From the NCBI GenBank assembly GCA_963514005.1, contig OY740783.1, positions 6,262,001-6,326,000 on the forward strand: 64,000 bases of DNA. Reading direction: 5' to 3'. Under the pieces are notes generated by a model. The model was not told the origin of the DNA and did no database searches. It saw nothing but the letters and a program-made list of their open reading frames with translations. Both the position numbers and the translations under genes were made by a program. Shown one piece after another: positions 12,327 to 28,949 of the stretch (position 1 is the stretch's first letter; the number at the start of each line of letters is the position of its first letter). Source of the stretch: Raja brachyura (taxonomy: Eukaryota).

Positions 12327-13783
12327 TGAATTGAATTGAATTGAATTGAATACCTTTATTGTCATTCAGACCTTTCGGTCTGAACGGAATTTCGTGCCTG
12401 CAGTCATACATATATAAAAAAAACAACAATACAATACCACACAATAAACACAAAATTAACATCCACCACAGTGAGTTCACCAAACACCTCCTCACTGTGG
12501 TGGAAGGCAAAAGTCTTAAGGTCTCAGTCATTTTCTCCCCTCCTTATTCTCCCTCTGCGCTGAGGGGATCCAGGCCGCCGCCACCGCTGACGCCAGAACG
12601 CCGGAACACCGCCACAGGGCCCGCCGCCGGAACGCCGCTGGAGCACCGCAGCTCCCGACACCCAAGCTGCCGCTGGAGCACCGCAGCTCCCGACACCCAA
12701 GCTGCCGCTGGAGCACCGCAGCTCCCGACATCCAGGCCGCCGCTGGAGCACCGCAGCTCCCGACACCCAAGCTGCCGCTGGAGCACCGCAGCTCCCGACA
12801 CCCAAGCTGCCGCTGGAGCACCGCAGCTCCCGACATCCAGGCCGCCACTGGAGCACCGCAGCTCCCGACACCCAGGCCGCCGCTGGAGCACCGCAGCTCC
12901 CGACATCCAGGCCGCCGCTGGAGCACCGCAGCTCCCGACATCCAGGCCGCCGCTGGAGCACCGCAGCTCCCGACATCCAGGCCGCCGCTGGAGCACCGCA
13001 GCTCCCGACACCCAAGCTGCCGCTGGAGCACCGCAGCTCCCGACACCCAAGCTGCCGCTGGAGCACCGCAGCTCCCGACATCCAGGCCGCCGCTGGAGCA
13101 CCGCAGCACCCGACATCCAGGCCGCCGCTGGAGCACCGCAGCTCCCGACATCCAGGCCGCCGCTGGAGCACCGCAGCTCCCGACATCCAGGCCGCCGCTG
13201 GAGCACCGCAGCTCCCGACATCCAGGCCGCCGCTGGAGCACCGCAGCTCCCGACACCCAGGCTGCCGCTGGAGCACCGCAGCTCCCGACACCCAAGCTGC
13301 CGCTGGAGCACCGCAGCTCCCGACATCCAGGCCGCCGCTGGAGCACCGCAGCTCCCGACATCCAGGCCGCCGCTGGAGCACCGCAGCTCCCGACATCCAG
13401 GCCGCCGCTGGAGCACCGCAGCTCCCGACATCCAGGCCGCCGCTGGAGCACCGCAGCTCAGAGGGAGCCAGGCCGCCGCTGGAGCTCCCGAAGCCCAGGT
13501 CGCCGCTGAAGCTCCGAAAGCCGTGCCGCCGCCGCTGGAAGGCCGTCACCAAGGCCTCAGCACAGACGGAGACGGTGTCGGGGGACACGACAGGAAAGTC
13601 GCATCCCCCCGAGGGGAGAGACTAAAACCCCGTTTCTCCCACCCTCCCCCCCCCCCCCCACACACATACACAACCCGACAAACCAAAAATAAACACCAAA
13701 AACAGGGACGAGGACAAAAATAAAATAAAGACAGACGGACTGCAGGTGAGCCGCAGCTGACAAGCAGCGCCGCCACTCCGAAA
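12327..13783 (-). mobile_element. Non-autonomous LINE-dependent element with AATAAA + (ATTCA)n tail and an internal minisatellite
   Basis: Tail TGAATTGAATT.. on the plus strand, hairpin CCACCACAGTGAG/CTCACTGTGGTGG at about 12463-12503, GC-rich 5' end; it interrupts a CR1 precisely. Confidence 0.6.
12634..13460. repeat. 35-bp GC-rich minisatellite, about 23 copies
   Basis: Unit GCTGGAGCACCGCAGCTCCCGACA(T/C)CCA(G/A)GC(C/T)GCC with two main variants. Confidence 0.97.
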
Positions 13784-18020: not shown

Positions 18021-21000
18021 TCTAACAAATATTCTAACAAAAAGTTCTTGTTTGTCCATTAAGACAAATCTGATTCTTTCCAGGTGGAAGGTCTCCGACA
18101 TTTCCATAATCCACATTTTAATTGTGGGGGTTATAGGGCCTTTCCAAAATTTTAATATTAATTTCTCCCCAGTTATTATACTGTAGTCTAGGAAGTTTCT
18201 TTGGCTTGTTGTGAGTGTTAAACTTTGTTCTGATATTCCAAGTATTATTACTTTTGAGTCAGGATCCAGTTTAGTATTAACAACTTCAGAAATTATTCTA
18301 AAAATATCAATCCAGAATTTTTTTATTTTTATACAATTTGCAAAAGTATGTGTTAAGTTAGCCTCTAGATGCTGATATTTATCGCAGATAGGAGAGATAT
18401 GTGGGCAAATTCTATTTAGTTTTACTTTAGAGTAGTGTAATCTGTGTAATACTTTAAATTGTATTAAAGCATGCCTGGCATTTAATGAGCATTGATGCAT
18501 ATATTGTAAACTTTTGTCCCAGATATATTTCGTTATGGGTTGGCTTAATTCATTTTCCCATGTATGTCTATATGATTCCGTCGATGGGACCTCGGTCTCT
18601 AAAAGGATATTATAAATATACATTCATTTTTCTGTATTAGGATGTTTATTCAAACATTCATCAAGGATTTCTGGTTCCCTACTCCTATAATCTTGTGTAT
18701 TGGATTTAACATAATCTCTAAATTGTAGATATCTAAAAAAAATATTTGAGTGTAGTCCATAAATCTGTTGTAACTCCTGAAATAACATAAAAGTGCCTTT
18801 CTTATAAAGATGTCCCATCTTTTTAATTCCATAATTTTTCCATTGTGTGAAACCTTTATCCAGCATGGAAGATTTGAATAAGGGATTGTTTACAATGGGG
18901 GGACAGAGTGGTATATTATCCAATTTTAAAGCCTTTTTTAATTGTTTCCAGATTTGTATACCACCATGTATTATAGGGTTTTCCCTAGAGGTTTTTTTGT
19001 GCAATTTTAACCAGTCAGGTTGCTGGTCCATTTCTTCCAGCCAGAAATTCATGTTTTGAACATGGGCTGCCCAAAAATAAAACAGAACATTTGGTGACGC
19101 TGAACCTCCATTTATCTTTGATTTACATAAATGTTTTTTGCTTATTCTATGATTCTAATAATCACAAATGAAAGTTGTAACAGTGGAGTCGACTTTTAAA
19201 AAAAAGATTTGGGGCTATATATCGGGATTCACTGAAATAAGTACAGTAATTGCAGCAAAAAAGATCATTTTTATAGCATTAATTCTACCAAACATTGAGA
19301 TGGGGAGTGTTTTCCAATACTGAATATTCATCTTTAGTATATTCAGTAAAGGTGGGAAGTTTGATTTAAATAAAGAAGTGTACGTCTTAGTTACATAAAT
19401 ACCTAAATATTTAAATTTTCCCTCAACTATTTTAAAAGGGGATTGTTGGAGTGTATGTAAATTGAGTTCCGTTATTGGCATGATTTCGCTTTTATTCCAA
19501 TGAATCCTATATCCTGAAAACTGACCAAACTACTACAATATTTGCCGTCAATATCTTCTATAGTTGATATATGTTTAAAAGGTATACCTTTACGGATTAA
19601 TATTGCAACCCCTCTAGATTTATGTGTGAATTAAGAGTGATACCTTTGAGCAATCCATTTTGCTTTCAATCTGTGTTGTGCTTTTTAAGATGAGTTTCCT
19701 GGAGAAATATATCTGTTTTAAGCAATTTTAAATGAGCTAATACTTTACCTCTCTTGATGGGTTCATTAATTCCCTTAACATTCCGAATACAGAATGTAAT
19801 TCCTTCACCCCCAGTTTTCACATTTACATCTTGCATCTTATGATTAAGGTGGTCTATGATTAAGCAGATGGTTCAGCACATTAAACCCTACCTTACACCC
19901 GAACTTCAGATAGATTAATTTTAGATCTCGTAGATTTTCTTCTCGGGCATATCTCCTTAAATAAAACATAATTCAATTCAAAATAAAAATTATAATATAA
20001 TATAAAATAGAAAAAGTAAGAGAGTGTTATATTAGTAAAGTGTAAAAGAAAGAAAAAAACTGCATCTATAGTTAGTGCAGTTAGTGAGAGCCACCCTAAT
20101 GTGGCTAGACTTATTTTGGTAAAATAAATAAATATTACTAGCTCCGTACTTTCCTTAAAAGAAAAGCTTCAATTTCAATAAAAAACATTACATGGGGGAT
20201 GGAAAACAATGGTTATATTCCACTAGTGGAATAATTATTAGTCTCAAAGTAAAATATTAGTCTCGTATAGCAAAAATATTAGTCAACGATTAGTCAAAAG
20301 TATCAAGGAGTAAACCTCAACATTTTTATTAATAAATTGCCTGAATCACACATTACTTACAATTCATCCTTTTAGCTAATTCTAATTTGATCCAGTTAAC
20401 AATTAATAATAATTAGTAATCATGATTAGTAATAATTAGTAATAATTAGTACTAAAATATAAAATATTATATAACAATAACAAGATAACTACTCAATTCT
20501 CATTCTAAATTCTAGACAGTCCTTAAGTATAGCAATTTAAAGTTCAATTTCTTTTCTGTGGGGTAACAATATCCGGTATCGTCAGGTGTATATTGAGTGT
20601 TGAATGTTATTCAATCCTCAGTCTCACTCTCAATGTTCTCAGTGTTCTTGATGTTCTCGATGTTCTTTGCAAATTCAAGGGCCTGTGTGTGCTTGGAGAA
20701 AAAATATTCCTTCTTATCGTAGATGATTCTCAATGTTGCGGGGTACATCAGTCCATATCTCAGGTTTTTTATGTTCTTAAGTATTCTTCTTGTGTCTGTA
20801 AACAATGCTCTTTTCTTGGAGACCTCCGCAGGGTAATCTCGAAATATACCGATCTTATCTCCTCCAAATTCGAGATTTCTGCTGCGAACGATTTTCTTCA
20901 TCATACCATCCAAAACATGATCATATTGCACCTTCACTATCTGTTGTCTTGTGGGGGCATCCGCCCTTGGGCGGCGTCTCATTGCTGTACGTACCCAAGC

Positions 21001-22158
21001 AAGTAAAGGTGCTTGATCCGATTTAAAACTTTCTTCAATAGATCTGCAGCAAATTCACGGGGGTCACGGTTCCCCTCTCTGCCTTCCCAAACGCCCATAA
21101 TTCTTAGATTCGAGCGTCTCTGACGTCCCTCCAAGTTAATACATTTTCCAGTTATTTTATGCAATGTCTGATAAATGCTTGTTCTAGGAGAGAAGCTTTC
21201 TTGTAGTTTTAGAGCTGTTTCAGCAATTTCCTCTAATTCAATTACAGTTTTATGTTGTTGCTCTAGTGCCTGGGAAATGGGGTCCCACTTTGAATTTTAC
21301 TTCGGAGTCACGTGAGTGACTACGTGAAGAAGACCCCGCCTGGCGCTGGAACGGCATTACGTCGACGCTATCGGCAGTGGAAGAGCTGCAGAGCGCAGCT
21401 CCAGCACAGCGGTAAGGAAACGGCCCGCAGGTAAGTAAAATTATTTTACTTCCAGGGCGTTTTTCTTAAAACTCCGTAGGCTGGTAGGAAACCAGCAGGA
21501 GTTTAAATAAAAATAAAAAATAAAATGTTTTAAAAAGAAAATCGCGGGTAAAACGTGCGTCCCGGGGTGTAAAAAGTCGGGACAGCAGACTATTGCGGAG
21601 CCGGTTCCGATACCGGTGGCCGATTGAAATACCCGTTAGGGAGCCTTTAGTTGTTCCACAAACAACACTTGAAAACCCAGTGCCTAAAAAGTAAAAAGAG
21701 GCTTGAAAGGCCTGAGGTTTCTAAAAGATCCTGTAAAGTAAGCCTAAAATTGGCTAAGTATGGATCTAATGGAGGAAATACTCCAAATTATATCAACCAA
21801 GGGTCTAAGTACCCAGAATATTCCCAGGCAGCCCCTGAGGGGGTTCCATATCGTGAATATGGTGCCAATTCGAATTGGGAATTTGAAACCCCAGTGCCTG
21901 GGTATGGACTGGAGGAAGTCTCCTTGAACGAGTTTCAGGAGTACCAGGGCTGTATGAGACAGACCCTGAAAGTGGTGTTTGTGGTCAGAAGTACCCACCA
22001 CAATGCAAATCCAGGTGTGTCTGAGGGGCACAAAGTTACTATACCTGGTGGAGGCGGTGAGGCCATGGAAGGAACCTGGCGGCCAATGTTAATTATATGG
22101 TCTCTCACCTGCCTCAAGAAGCTGTTATGGTTGAAACAGCAGATTTGCATTTAAACAT

Positions 22159-22223
22159 GTGCTCGCTTCGGCAGCACACATACTAAAATTGGAATAATAC
22201 AGAATATAATGCATGAAGCATTC
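22159..22223 (+). pseudogene. RNU6: U6 snRNA-derived fragment (nt 1-45 plus probable 3' piece) inside DIRS gag
   Basis: GTGCTCGCTTCGGCAGCACACATACTAAAATTGGAATAATACAGA matches the U6 5' end. CATGAAGCATTC at 22212-22223 resembles U6 CGTGAAGCGTTC with CpG decay. Confidence 0.9.
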
Positions 22224-22673
22224 TAAAACACCTTTAAGTAGGTACCTGGTAAATCCGGGTTTTAGGCGCCAATGTCAGCAATTATGCGGGCGCAGGAATT
22301 ACGATTAAAAGAATCCTCAAACTAATTGGCATCACTGTGTTTTAAGACAAGCTGGGAAGTTGTGGAATGACTAAAGTTCAGAATGAAACAAAATATGTTA
22401 GGTTTATTCTGCAAACTTATTTGAGTTAAATTATATAAATAGAAGATTGCCATTCGGCCTCTTTTACATCCAAAGATTTACAGGACAAGCAATGTTCAAA
22501 CTCCTGGTTATTGATTCGGAGAAAATCTGTTTAAGCAAATTAAGTATGGATGAAGGGGAAGAAACTGTTGGTCTTATGAAACCCTTCAGTTGGCCAGTAG
22601 GCTGGTCATATGGAAAAGGGATTTGATTTGAGCTGAGGCAGGAGTATGATAAGGAAGAATTTCCAGCCAGCAA

Positions 22674-22768
22674 ATCGTTTCTCGGCTTTTTGGCTAAGAT
22701 TAAGCATGGTATCTGTTCTTATCAGTTTAAATCTGATACGTCCCTTATCTAGGGACCATATATTAAAT
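22674..22768 (+). pseudogene. RNU2: U2 snRNA 5' fragment (about nt 1-96) inside DIRS gag
   Basis: ATCGTTTCTCGGCTTTTTGGCTAAGATTAAG..TATCTGTTCTTATCAGTTTAA.TCTGATACGTCCCTTATCTAGGGACCATATATTAAAT; it stops just before the Sm site. Confidence 0.92.
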
Positions 22769-25700
22769 AAAATAACGAATGTACACCCACATTTTTGGGT
22801 AAGGAGGTAATTTCGTCAAACAGTTGGGGAGGTACAAAACTTAATCCTATTTAAGAAGGATGTTTGGATGAACCTCAGATTGGTGGTAGACTCCAAATGT
22901 TGATAATGAAGAGGTATGGATCCATTGGGACACAATAACCTGATCATTCTTCATGTTATAGTCTTGGAATAATTCAAATTGACAAAGATGTGAGAATTTG
23001 TGTGAGGAAGGAGGTATTGAGAAACAGGTAAAGGATCCACAACAATTGTATCAAATATTTTCCCCAGGCCATAGAAGATGGGGTTGTACAATCATGTTAG
23101 ATCTCACACAATTAAATATATTGTCCAGTAAAAAATTTTAAAATGGACACATTCAACACTGCAATACAGCAGGTATCAACAGGTGGTTATGGCTGCAATA
23201 AATTGAAGAGATGCATATTTCGGTCCCAATTCACCATAATTTCATAGGTAATTAAGTTATGGATGAGACAGTTTGTGGTACTACAAGCTTTGCCTTTAAG
23301 GATTAAGCCAGCATTTGCACTGCCTTAGGCACAAAAGTACATCGTTATGGCTTATCTAGATGACATTTAATTGTCAATGCTAATCAGGAGCCAGGTGGAA
23401 AATTAGTCAGTAACTACAAGTTGTTTGAGAAGTTGGGTTCCTGATCCATCCAACAAATCTAAGTTACAGCAATCCCAAACCATTGAATTTGGTTTGAGAT
23501 TAACTCAGTTACCATGTTGGTAACTTTACCAATGGATAAGTGTTGGATTTGACAAATGTGTGTCAAGACCTGATTTACAAACCTTATCCCTCCATCCGAG
23601 AGGTTGCCAAGATTATTGGTAAATTGGCAGCAGCATTCACCAGACAGTAGAGTTTGGTCGTCTACATTACCAAAATCTTCAAAGGGCAAAAACTCAAGCG
23701 CTTATTCAGCGAGCAAGCCATTTGATAGGCCAATGCAATTGCCTAAGGAAGTTTTATCAGAATTACATTGATGGATTGAGAATGTTCCATAAGCTGCTTA
23801 GAACTTTTAGTTCATCAGCCAGTAGTGTTTTTGCAAAATGACGAAGTTCTCTCGGATGGGGGGGGGGGGGTACGGATAATGAGACCAGCTGTAGAGGCAG
23901 ATGGGCTGTCCAAGAGGATTTATTGTTCCAAACATATGGTATTAATTATTTGGAGCTCTTGGTAGCATTTTATGTATTAAAAGCTTATTGCCCTTCATTA
24001 AAGGATTTGCATGTCCAAGTACAAATAGATTATACCACAGCTGTGGCATATATTAATCACATGGGTGGTGTTAGATCAATATCATGTGATCATCTGGTAA
24101 ACCAGATGTGCCAATGGTGTATGGCAAAAAATATTTGGCTTTCAGCTATTTATCTCTCGGGGAGAGACAATGTTGTGACAGATAAAGATCACAAATATTT
24201 GAAGACAATACAGAATGGATGTTTAATCCACACAATTTCAAAATATTGTCAGTCGGTATGGAGTGCCGGACATTGATCTGTTTGCATCTAGATTGAATCA
24301 CCAATTGCTCAAATACGTGTCTTGGGGAACACGATCCAGCGGCAGTAGCGGTGGATGTTTTCTCGCTACACTGGGGAATTTGTTATTTTATGATTTTCCC
24401 CATTCTGTCTCATTGGGCAATGTCTCAATAAAAAGCGCAAGACGCTGTCGAATGCAATTTTGGTGGTGTCAGATTGGCCCACGCAGTCATGATTCCCATT
24501 GATGCTAATATGATTATTGAACCATGTATGACAATTCCCAGTTGCGACAATCTGTTGACACAACCAGTAACAAAAGGAATTCATCCATTGCATGATCATA
24601 TGTATTTGTTAATCTGCAGGTTCTGACCAGACCATTGCAAGAGTTTGTACTGTCGGACAGGACCATGGATGTTATAGTTGCAGCTTGGAGGAATAGCACT
24701 AAAACAATATAAGTCGCATATAAGGAAATGGGAAGTGTACACAGTCAAAGATATCTTATCATACTGCAAACATTTCAAATGTATTACAGTTCCTTGCTGG
24801 GTTACACTTGATGAGCATTTGAGTATAGTGCCATTAATTGTGCTCGTAGTGCATTGTCATCCTATTTAGGACAAATTTCAGATCGAGATTCATTGGGTCT
24901 CACCCATTAGTATCCCGACTCATGAAAGGAATTTCAATAAAATCATCCCAAGCCCATATATACAGGAATTTGGGATGTTAGCATTGTTCTCACTTTGTTT
25001 AAACAATGGACTCCAATTAATTCAATGTCTTTGCAGAAATTAACATTCAAGGTGGTAAAGTTAATGGCATTGGTATCAGCTCAAAAAGAGTACAAGCTTT
25101 GCAGTTGTACGGTTGGATTGCATGCATGTGACTGCAGATAACATTATGTTTTATGTTTATGACTTGATCAAACAAAGCAGACCAGGAAGAACTGGAATGA
25201 AGGTAATGTTTAAAGCATATCCTATTGATGAAACATTGTGTGTGGTTAAGCATTTAACTCAGTACATTGAGGTAACCAAAATCTCAGAGGTTCTGAGAAA
25301 GCGTTATTAATAACACACAAAAAGCCACATACAAAAGGTTCAGTTCAAACCATTTCTGGATGGTTTGTGTCTAGCAAGAATAGACACTGATGTGTTTAAA
25401 TCTCACTCCACTAGGGCGGCAGCTACGTCCGTGGCAAAGGTACAGGACGTGCCACTCGATAAAATTTTAGAGGCCGCAGGGTGGTCTAGAGAAGAGATTT
25501 TCAAAGTTCTAGAATAAACCTGTTGTCACAGTGCCAGGATTTAGACACACAGTAATGGGTTCTCTTTAATGCTTGCTTTGTTTTATATTATCGATTCATA
25601 TTATCGATTTATGTTACCATTGACAACATTTATCAATTTATTTTGTAATTTTCCCCTAAGATAGAGGGGTTATTATTAAAAAGTTGTTCTTTTTATGATT

Positions 25701-26874
25701 AAAGGACTTATTACATAAATTGTAACAATGTCCTAAAATACTATTTACTCACTACTGTTTTGACTAAACAGAGAGTCGTATGAAATGAATTTACGACATG
25801 AAAAACACAGAGCTTCAAAATCTTCACGTAGTCACTCACGTGACTCCGAAGTACAATAGTGAGATTAAACGAGAACTTACCAGTTCGAAGTTTGATCTTT
25901 ATTTTATGAGGAGTTACGATGAGGGATTACGTGCCCTCCACTCCCAACCCTCATAATGTAAATGATCATCTGGTAGTTCTAGTCTATTTTGAGCCTTACT
26001 ATTTTACTTCGGCTATTGGTTTCTGTGTTTTTCATGCCGCTGCTTTGAAGTATGCCGTTCCAGCGCCAGGCGGGGTCTTCTTCACGTAATCCCTCATCGT
26101 AACTCCTCATAAAATAAAGATCAAACTTCGAACTGGTAAGTTCTCGTTTAATCTCACTATTAAATGTGGATTCCATCAAATTCAATTTAACATTTACCTC
26201 TTCAATCTTTTGATTAAGATGTTCTTCCATGTTGAACTTCCAGGCATCCAGTACTTCATGTACAGAGGCTATGACATCTTCTTGAATTTCTTCTTCAATT
26301 TCTTTTTTTTTACAAATTCAATTCTTCCTTGAAGTTCTGTTTAAGTTTTTTCAATTCTTCCATTATATTTGAGATTTCTTGTGCGAGGAAACTTCTTAAT
26401 TCTTCCACATCTGTTTTCTTCTTCTTTGAGATCTCTTCTTGGGACGATGTTAAACCTGAGCCCAAGGCTTCAGTCGGGCCTACTTCTTACCGGGTTTTCT
26501 CGACTTGGTGTGTGTGTATGTTGAGTAGACATACCGCCGGTGTCGTCGCGCGCTTGATGACGTCTCACGCTTACTGCAAGCAACCGGTACCGTTGTACTG
26601 CAAGTAAGTCCCGATTTCCCCCCCCCCCCCCCTTTTTAATCAATTTTTTGCGGAGCTAAACGGCGCGAGTCTGCCTTGCTCCATAGCACCGACAGAAGTC
26701 CGTGAGCTAGTTGTTAACCACTCGTGTGAAATGGTTAATGTTAACTACCCTAATCAAAGCTTGTTTATTATGAATTCTTATGAAGGACTTTCAGGTGAAA
26801 GGAATGTGTGGAGTGGCCATTCATTGAGCTTTGGACTGGACAGACTGTTGTAGATACTTGGATGCTCTTGCTCA

Positions 26875-28800
26875 AAATGCTGGAGTAACTCAGCGGGTCA
26901 GGCAGCATCTGTGGAGAACATGGATAGGTGATGTTTCACAGAGTGCTGAAGTAACTCAGTGGGTCACGTTTGATGCCAATCGGGAAGAGTACAACATTGG
27001 GCAGCTCAGTCGGGGAGTTCACGGTTTGTGTGAAGTGTTGGCTTTGATATAGCTGGGATGTTACTGTGCCAGTTTGATTATGAAAATAGTCAATGTATTC
27101 TTCCACCTTGTAGGATTCACTACTGCAGACTCATTTGAATTTCACTGTAACTTAATTGGTACATGTGACGATAACACTTGGCCCAATGTTTCAAGGTCAG
27201 TTTATTTTTCCAGGCCCTGTCCATCCAATGTTTGATACTTTGAGGTGAATGTAGAATCTACCTGCTGCTGTCTCTCCATCTACAATTACTCTACTTGTTT
27301 CTGGTTGATGCGCCAAGGTCTTTGGATATCTTCTAATGTCCTCAGTTTCCTATGGTTTGTGATAGGTGGGCTTTGTCAACTTGCTGTTCCAAGTACTGCT
27401 TGTGATAGAGGGTGTGATCAAGGATGTCAGGAGATTTCAATCATTAAAGTGATCTGTTTTTTGTTATAACCATGTCTACCTAATCTAGTCTTTGTGGAGA
27501 TGGTATGAAGAGAAGGCCCTTGTTTAGATCCTCTCGTGGTTTCAATGGGGATAAATCTTTGAGAAAGATTAACAATGTCTTTTCCCAATTGCTTTGTGGT
27601 CACATTCCTTGTATTTCAGGGTGCTGGAATGCTGAGCAGAAATGCTGGAGGAACCGAGGGTCAGGCAGCATCTGTGGGGGAAATAGACAGATTGGGTTAG
27701 AAACCTTCAGACTGAAGGGGGAGAAAGATGGAAAGTGGGGGTGGGACAAAGCCTGGCATGTGAGGGTGGGTGGTTGGCAGATGAATGGAATAAGTGACGA
27801 AGGCCAGATGTGACAGTGATAAAACATGAAGGATAAGGGGGAAAACATGAAGGATAAGATCTCGGAGAAAACCCACTTGGTCACCGGGAGAACGTACAAA
27901 CTCCGTACAAAACCAGTGTCTCTGGCACTAAGGCAACAACTCAACCACTGTGCTGCCCTTCAACAAAGCTGGCATGTTGCTGTGGCAGGGAATTACAGTA
28001 GTCAATGTATTCTGCTACCCTGTAGGGTTCACTACAATCCTTTCAATGGCTGATCCTGTTTCTCATGACCTCCAATTACATTTGGAATCTGTTCCTCTCT
28101 AGGTGTGAAGGAGGATGTCATCAGACTTCAAATCACTAACGTGACATTGGTTTGTTTTGTATGTAACTTAGTCTATCTGAAAATAAAAAGTTAAATTAAT
28201 CTTCAACAGTTATTAAGGGCCTGGAAAAATAACCCTAGGCCCAATGTTTCAAGGTCAGTTTATTGTCACATGTACTGTCTGCAGTAGTGAATCCTACAGG
28301 GCAGAAGAATACATTGCCTATTTTCATAATCAAACTGGCACAGCAACATCCCAGCTCTATCAAAGACAACACTTCACACAAACAGTGAACTCCCCGACTG
28401 AGCTGCCCAATGTTGTACTCTTCACGTTTGGCATCAAACGTGACCCACTGAGTTACTCCAGCACTCTGTGAAACGTCACCTGTCCATGTTCTCCAGAGAT
28501 GCTGCCTGACCCGCTGAGTTCCTCCAGCACTTTGTGTCTTTTTTTGTAACCCAGCACCTGCAACTCCTTGATTTTCATCCCAAATCTTTCCTAGTTTCAG
28601 GGCTTTTACTAAGTTTGGCATCTGGGCAATGGGTACAGGGAAAGGAAAAGGGTCCCAGAGCAATAAAGCACCATTTTGCAGTAAAGAGAACAATATCTAA
28701 TTTGGAGACAGCGCTCCAAATGTGCAGTGAAATCACATAACAGGTCGCTCCAATTTGTGGTCAACACTCCCACCGTGTGGTAATCCACCACACTGCAGGC
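26875..28800. repeat. Old inverted duplication: 28217-28800 is the reverse complement of 26875-27218 plus 15120-15455
   Basis: Matching conceptual translations HTVGVLTTNWSDLL at 15021(+) and 28609(-), and EEYNIGQLSRGVH at 26831(+) and 28235(-). Confidence 0.85.
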
Positions 28801-28945
28801 CCGTCCAATTTGTGGTCAACACTCCCACCATGTGGTGATCCACCACACTGCAGGCCCGTCCAATATGTGGTCAACACTCCCACCGTGTGGTAATCCACTG
28901 CACTGCAGGCCGGTCCAATTTGTGGTCAACACTCCCACAGTGTGG
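28751..28945. repeat. 55-bp tandem repeat, about 3.5 copies
   Basis: CAATTTGTGGTCAACACTCCCACC recurs at 28751, 28806, 28861 and 28916. Confidence 0.93.
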
Positions 28946-28949
28946 TTTA

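Follow-up and report, generated by a model that had tools for sequence, protein, structure and literature searches.

The 64,000-nucleotide stretch of Raja brachyura DNA analysed here (the window; contig OY740783.1, positions 6,262,001 to 6,326,000) contains a full-length, non-coding DIRS retrotransposon that carries pieces of two spliceosomal small nuclear RNAs (snRNAs), U6 and U2, within its interior. This cargo travels with the element, since identical snRNA junctions are found in about 300 copies at different insertion sites. Seven separate snRNA insertions were recovered from DIRS lineages of this genome, and from their sequences it is probable that the DIRS reverse transcriptase (RT) switches to associated snRNAs, which are trimmed and carry an oligo-A tail, and then returns to its own template. 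The element and its two snRNA pieces are located in the window as follows.

21297..26161, plus strand: non-autonomous DIRS (tyrosine-recombinase) retrotransposon of lineage A, bounded by terminal repeats, with ATT at both junctions
22159..22224, plus strand: U6 snRNA cargo, nucleotides (nt) 1 to about 45 with internal deletions, then nt about 82-99
22674..22772, plus strand: U2 snRNA cargo, nt 1-96 plus AAAA

Patterns spanning the exact junctions matched the genome 306 times for U6 and 308 times for U2, and reversed controls gave no match. All 40 scored matches to a query covering positions 22000-22950 were 99-100% identical over the entire 951 bases. Thirty loci were 97.2-100% identical over 3.15 kb, and their flanks differ from the first base of the element. 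A marker in the left terminus has 639 exact matches, and about 306 of these copies are carriers. The first-pass annotation, which was made from the window alone, had suspected that the cargo is propagated with the element; hundreds of copies at different loci with identical junctions confirm this for the present genome. The opposite outcome, cargo unique to this locus and flanked by L1-type target-site duplications (TSDs), is excluded by the approximately 300 exact junctions and the lack of a TSD. Single-locus retropseudogenes are likewise ruled out by the 306 and 308 junction matches, segmental duplication by flanks that differ right at the element end, and an L1-type snRNA retropseudogene by the absence of a TSD in comparisons of empty and filled sites and by the occurrence at more than a single locus. 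Relatives were sampled as the first 20 terminus matches of contig C1 with neither of the exact junctions, plus 13 more. None of the long-frame relatives among these sampled terminus copies carried an snRNA, and the 13 further copies with this terminus held no other cargo. Among sequencing runs, no RNA run was listed as containing the element, whereas seven runs under three organism codes contained 24-65% of its words.

The DIRS identity of the element, already proposed in the first-pass annotation, is borne out by its inverted terminal repeats, an internal complementary region (ICR) and a region of RT and tyrosine recombinase (YR) that aligns with the relative L193. The parts of the element are given below.

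21297..21357, plus strand: left inverted terminal repeat, from repeat pairing and the 639 exact genome matches of its marker
21500..25560 (approximate), plus strand: decayed gag-like, RT/RNase H and tyrosine recombinase coding region, from alignment to long-frame relatives
25821..25933, plus strand: ICR, complementary to both ends
26052..26161, plus strand: right inverted terminal repeat, from repeat pairing and similarity to the long-frame relative

Positions 21313-21357 pair with 26052-26096 at 96%, and the ICR pairs with both ends (21294-21330 with 25821-25857; 25855-25933 with 26083-26161 at 100%). The reading frames between the repeats are ruined. The coding span differs from the long-frame relative by 106 indels, 93 of which are frame-breaking. 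The identity to L193, for which Pfam matched RVT_1 and Phage_integrase, amounts to 79-99% per 250-nt bin, and the last 350 bases (last two bins) are 96-99% identical to the long-frame relative. Several relatives of the lineage possess frames of up to 1,048-1,078 amino acids plus 332 amino acids, which match RVT_1 and Phage_integrase. The Pfam search that gave these two domains returned no RNase H or methyltransferase domain, and two coding-region fragments of the window searched alone had no Pfam match. No Pfam model matched gag, so that "gag" is used here as a label by position. The U6 and U2 sites, placed within decayed gag in the first-pass annotation, both fall upstream of the RT domain within the long frame of intact relatives. 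In 30 of 30 near-identical lineage A loci, the longest sense frame comprises 88-209 amino acids. Together with the long frames in relatives that share its termini, this identifies lineage A as non-coding with intact relatives in existence, and the lineage is likely copied in trans by the proteins of the latter. The suggestion of a non-autonomous lineage thus stands, as near-identical dispersed copies without coding capacity and intact relatives with the same ends are both present.

Both snRNA pieces lie in sense orientation and start at nt 1, as initially noticed; Rfam placed their first bases at 22674 and 22159. For U2 (RF00004, plus strand), the score of 86.4 bits exceeds the gathering score of 46, whereas the U6 match (RF00026, 22159-22203, plus strand) stays below gathering with 27.9 bits and an E value of 6e-4. 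The U2 array L212-L222, located by Rfam, and the U6-like gene L109 of the same genome served as references. Compared with the U2 gene L212, nt 1-96 correspond to window positions 22674-22768 with six substitutions and one deletion, followed by AAAA, and comparison with L109 revealed a U6 3' remnant at 22208-22224. Older sister copies hold U6 from nt 1 to about 100, from which 7 nt and subsequently 31 nt were lost internally. These copies and the 3' remnant rule out that U6 was captured as a 3'-truncated piece of 45 nt. A functional snRNA gene, which would be of full length and have an Sm site or a terminal U run, was also rejected, because U2 ends at nt 96 of 191 and U6 is internally deleted. 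Weak Rfam matches to miRNA, snoRNA and sRNA models were below gathering and set aside.

The sister copies of lineage A form a ladder that leads from no cargo to U6, to U6 plus U2, to an extended U2 and to a deletion inside U6, with a side branch that adds U5. The U6 site is exactly empty in 121 copies, and an empty U2 site is present both in copies with U6 alone and in those free of cargo. For 56 copies, a tree was built from flanks without the cargo (L168 and L170 were left out after failed anchoring; L161, L104 and L164 are long-branched from rearrangements). In this tree, the U2 carriers cluster within the set of U6 carriers (98/85 when the basal L126 is left aside), the copies with long U2 are nested inside those with short U2 (100/99), and the 31-nt U6 deletion of the window copy marks a terminal clade (100/99). 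The separation of cargo-free from U6-only copies is incomplete. L057 has a separate U6 deletion, and a subgroup of lineage A (L290, L291, L299 and L300, several of them on small contigs) has a rearranged U6 interior. The side branch is represented by L329 and L330, which carry U6, U2 and U5 nt 3-102, all in sense orientation.

All ten copies with the ancestral 5' U2 junction carry the short U2. Short and long U2 share private changes at nt 14 and 35; to the resident piece of nt 1-89, the long form adds nt about 90-96, which match the gene, and an A run that is absent from the gene. An origin of the short form by deletion of the long one is disfavoured by the short U2 in copies with the ancestral junction, the nested position of the long form and the shared changes at nt 14 and 35. 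We read the extension as a probable second, homology-guided switch onto U2 RNA, which would fit the gene-matching bases, the A run and the retained private changes; recombination with an unsampled partner is a possible alternative.

The seven separate insertions are A-U6, A-U2, A-U5, B-U2, C-U2, D-U6 and F-U4, named after lineage and snRNA. In lineage B, a U2 piece of nt 1 to about 88 sits towards the end of the long frame, immediately before the YR frame. The gag-like region of lineage C contains U2 nt 1-86 plus AAAA, and nine empty sites were found for this insertion. U6 nt 1-97 plus AAAA is located in the RT region of lineage D (four filled copies; eight of nine unfilled loci shown to be contiguous). 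In lineage F, one copy has a full U4 with three bases of downstream extension and A11, and its empty sisters are many. A, B, C and F represent distinct backgrounds on a further tree; D is set apart by BLAST only.

The census of U2 covered 70 of 673 pattern matches (the first 30 and then 40 more), with nine rows skipped that had been seen or were presumed known (six of lineage A, two LINE heads, one tandem duplicate; LINE, long interspersed nuclear element). The majority of these matches, 56, lie in DIRS elements (46 in B, 7 in C and 3 in A), 12 stand at the head of a LINE and two are of other kinds. For U6, 50 of 61 matches were sampled (five known lineage A copies, two cluster neighbours and four matches on small contigs were skipped), and 28 of them are inside DIRS. 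U5 and U4 are found there in two of 14 and one of five matches, respectively. Searches for other cargo RNAs scored the best candidates only.

Some further snRNA arrangements were observed. A tandem U2 gene array with a spacing of about 20 kb is located at C55:14.86-15.64 Mb, and a cluster of U1 matches at C19:43.6-44.1 Mb. A LINE family bears variable 5' heads of U1, U2, U4, U5 or U3, often two in series, before a shared leader (L072, L093, L095, L133-L139, L141, L143-L147, L151-L153, L159, L160, L332, L333 and L339). RNA-binding domains of the ZCCHC3 type and zinc-knuckle domains are encoded by its first frame, and we take the family to resemble Keno or SINEU. At L112 and L119 (L188, L189), two U6 copies without the first six to eight bases share the upstream sequence and have different downstream flanks, which suggests that U6 was joined twice to one and the same repeat.

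The seven insertions agree in their junction anatomy. All are in sense orientation (chance 0.5^7 = 0.008) and start at or adjacent to snRNA nt 1. None of the seven has a target duplication relative to the empty site, and at most one DIRS base was lost in six of them. Most 3' junctions display A-rich untemplated runs, namely AAAA in C, D and the long U2, AAAC in A-U6, and A11 after the 3-base precursor extension in U4. Three A precede the A-U6 piece, one A stands on each side of A-U2, and the 5' junction of U4 has a 3-base overlap. The first-pass annotation had described the pieces as having no obvious TSD and no obvious poly(A) tail; the former is correct against the empty site, the latter needs qualification in view of the short A runs. 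As a control, flanking duplications of 12-19 nt were found in five of 17 non-DIRS U6 copies, some of which may be genes, and in none of five DIRS-embedded copies.

Template switching of the DIRS RT, as suggested from the outset, is probable given the orientation, junction shape and recurrence of the insertions. In such a process, a DIRS RNA would break, and the RT would run off the break and jump to an snRNA, trimmed and in many cases oligo-A-tailed, at whose 3' end it would land. It would copy this RNA to its first base and jump to the free end of the other DIRS fragment, and the repaired cDNA would integrate in the normal way. Coding copies would be killed by the insert, and non-coding lineages would carry it on as a passenger. 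The RT of DIRS-1 works in trans, with DIRS-1 cDNA located in the cytoplasm (PMC7192593), the RNAs packaged by murine leukaemia virus (MLV) include pre-U2, U6 and forms of U6 that are truncated or adenylated (PMC4378196), and template switching patches host RNAs into retroviral cDNA (PMC4997597). These properties fit a capture during DIRS reverse transcription. The DIRS replication complex, including the primer, is described as poorly known (PMC7192593).

Several observations weigh against this mechanism. A terminal DIRS 19-mer has 36,332 matches with at most one mismatch, which leads to an estimate of about 18,000 DIRS elements or roughly 3% of the genome. At such an abundance, one or two chance landings are expected, and a lone event such as U4, present in a single copy (one of 40 scored), could be a chance genomic insertion. 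Seven events are a small sample that is biased to amplified lineages. The U5 capture removed about 22 DIRS bases. Most non-DIRS U6 copies lack a duplication as well, so the absence of TSDs is supportive and not diagnostic by itself. Eight bases at the 3' junction of A-U6 repeat the sequence just upstream, which makes an 18-bp TSD with later deletion possible; none of 16 exact copies retains it. Inside DIRS elements, the matches sampled gave no U1 (0 of 30 sampled from 119 matches), U3 (0 of 8), 7SK (0 of 5) or Y RNA (0 of 2). 7SL is the host RNA most packaged by retroviruses, and 0 of 9 matches were inside DIRS.

As an alternative, snRNA cDNAs made by LINEs or captured during break repair might have entered DIRS copies in the genome, and a part of these copies would then have served as masters that spread the cargo. 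The abundance of DIRS (about 3% of the genome) favours such an origin, blunt junctions with an added A are compatible with end joining, and LINE activity on snRNAs is documented by the 12 of 70 U2 matches that head a LINE family and the TSDs of five of 17 non-DIRS U6 copies. The A-U6 site may even be read as a TT/AAAC cut whose TSD was deleted later, but neither the C nor the U4 site is AT-rich, and all seven insertions are in sense orientation without a TSD against real empty sites. Moreover, three insertions and an extension that accumulated in one lineage of 4.9 kb over about 10% divergence, with seven of seven insertions in sense, are hard to obtain by chance genomic insertion, and the extension landed exactly at the end of the resident U2. 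We consider an entry by LINEs or repair unlikely, although it is the strongest competitor of a capture by the DIRS RT.

Two alternatives retain the DIRS enzyme and add a benefit of the cargo. The farther-reaching one is doubtful: the RT would routinely bridge RNA breaks by jumping end to end via co-assembled snRNAs, either nascent or decaying, and non-coding lineages would keep and refresh the pieces as an aid in export or packaging. If true, these lineages would be snRNA-tagged parasites of DIRS, accounting for most dispersed U2 copies in this genome. It is less probable still that captured pieces are selected because U6 and U2 structures promote export, packaging or protection of a non-coding RNA. 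Carriers occur in large numbers (about 306 of the 639 copies with the terminus marker; 46 of 70 sampled U2 matches in lineage B). In the window copy, no change affects the U6 5' stem-loop (nt 1-19), and a single deletion but no substitution falls within U2 nt 36-96. However, these unchanged stretches were chosen after looking. As a whole, U2 differs at 6 of 95 positions and its flanks at 31 of 421 and 52 of 686 (7.4-7.6%); U6 differs at 6 of 61 and its flanks at 45 of 420 and 75 of 698 (10.7%). U6 lost 7 and then 31 nt (38 in total), and cargo-free non-coding sisters were amplified too, as indicated by the 121 exact empty sites. Diverging like its flanks, the cargo is best seen as a passenger.

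Least probable is a ligation of the snRNA 3' end to broken DIRS RNA prior to reverse transcription, in which case a jump would have produced the 5' junction alone. The sense orientation and the blunt 3' junctions are compatible with it and RNA ligation is described for U6/L1 chimeras, but the captured U6 lacks the terminal U run in both events, A-tailed ends are not an expected ligase substrate, and the homology-guided U2 extension is left unexplained.

Additional observations concern DIRS elements in general and the surroundings of the window copy. The 19-mer count comprises many diverged DIRS families with nearly identical termini, and apparent tandem arrays are present at C1:720,743-763,020. 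At L059 and L061, two DIRS copies adjoin head-to-tail, the right end of the first passing straight into the left end of the second, an arrangement that a circular intermediate or tandem integration would produce. In the window, an ORF1-like frame on the minus strand (20611-21296 and 26162-26317) contains the DIRS element, and its halves join across the shared ATT. This frame presumably belongs to a LINE; the tested fragment had no Pfam match. Inverted arms of 258 nt (26873-28534; 94% complementary, 1,146 nt apart) are made of a common short repeat, and tandem arrays are located at 12633-13485 (35-mer, 24 copies) and 28749-28946.

If the DIRS RT captures snRNAs, the junctions would be a fossil record of host RNAs that met the enzyme, that is, trimmed, A-tailed and precursor snRNAs of the class packaged by MLV. 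They would predict an end-to-end jumping activity for the DIRS RT and indicate a LINE-free route to snRNA pseudogenes. Nested captures may be used as markers to order DIRS subfamilies. Because 56 of 70 sampled U2-like matches are inside DIRS, U2 and U6 annotations and copy numbers are inflated in such genomes.

In the literature searched, which lies outside subscription journals, Repbase entries and supplements, no report of a DIRS element with snRNA cargo was found, and the Xenopus DIRS paper (PMC9210276) does not contain the word "snRNA". Lineage A resembles Dictyostelium DIRS-1 and the Xenopus families (PMC7192593, PMC9210276) in its inverted terminal repeats, its ICR, the RT and YR of intact relatives and its probable mobilisation in trans; it differs from their descriptions by being full-length non-coding and by its heritable internal snRNA cargo. 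The U6-L1 and other snRNA-LINE chimeras and the 3'-truncated snRNA pseudogenes (PMC4476161) are similar in that the snRNA is in sense orientation and 5'-complete and that template switching is proposed. In contrast to the internal, TSD-free and amplified DIRS cargo, the snRNA of these chimeras is at the 5' end of one insertion with TSDs, and they are dead ends; truncated snRNA copies made by L1 have TSDs in 70-100% of the cases (PMC4476161). Non-autonomous retroelements with sequences derived from small RNAs are also known as Cassandra, Helenus and Ajax (PMC10886601). Their 5S or tRNA pieces are situated in long terminal repeats (LTRs) and, being Pol III promoters, are conserved, whereas the DIRS pieces are internal and drifting. 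A Cassandra-like TRIMp3 is thus ruled out, as the cargo is not in a terminal repeat and diverges like its flanks. SINEU and Keno (PMC4494074) share the inheritance of U1 or U2 pieces in a multi-copy family and their serial addition by template switch, but use a non-LTR mechanism in which the snRNA is the 5' head, unlike in DIRS. Old associations of snRNAs with LTR elements are mentioned second-hand in the literature, and retroviral packaging and patch repair of host non-coding RNA (PMC4378196, PMC4997597; Giles 2004, as cited in PMC4476161) parallel the DIRS captures in U6, pre-U2, A-tailed decay forms and RT switching. The retroviral cases concern exogenous or LTR elements and are rare or old single events, whereas in DIRS a serial cargo became fixed in a spreading lineage.

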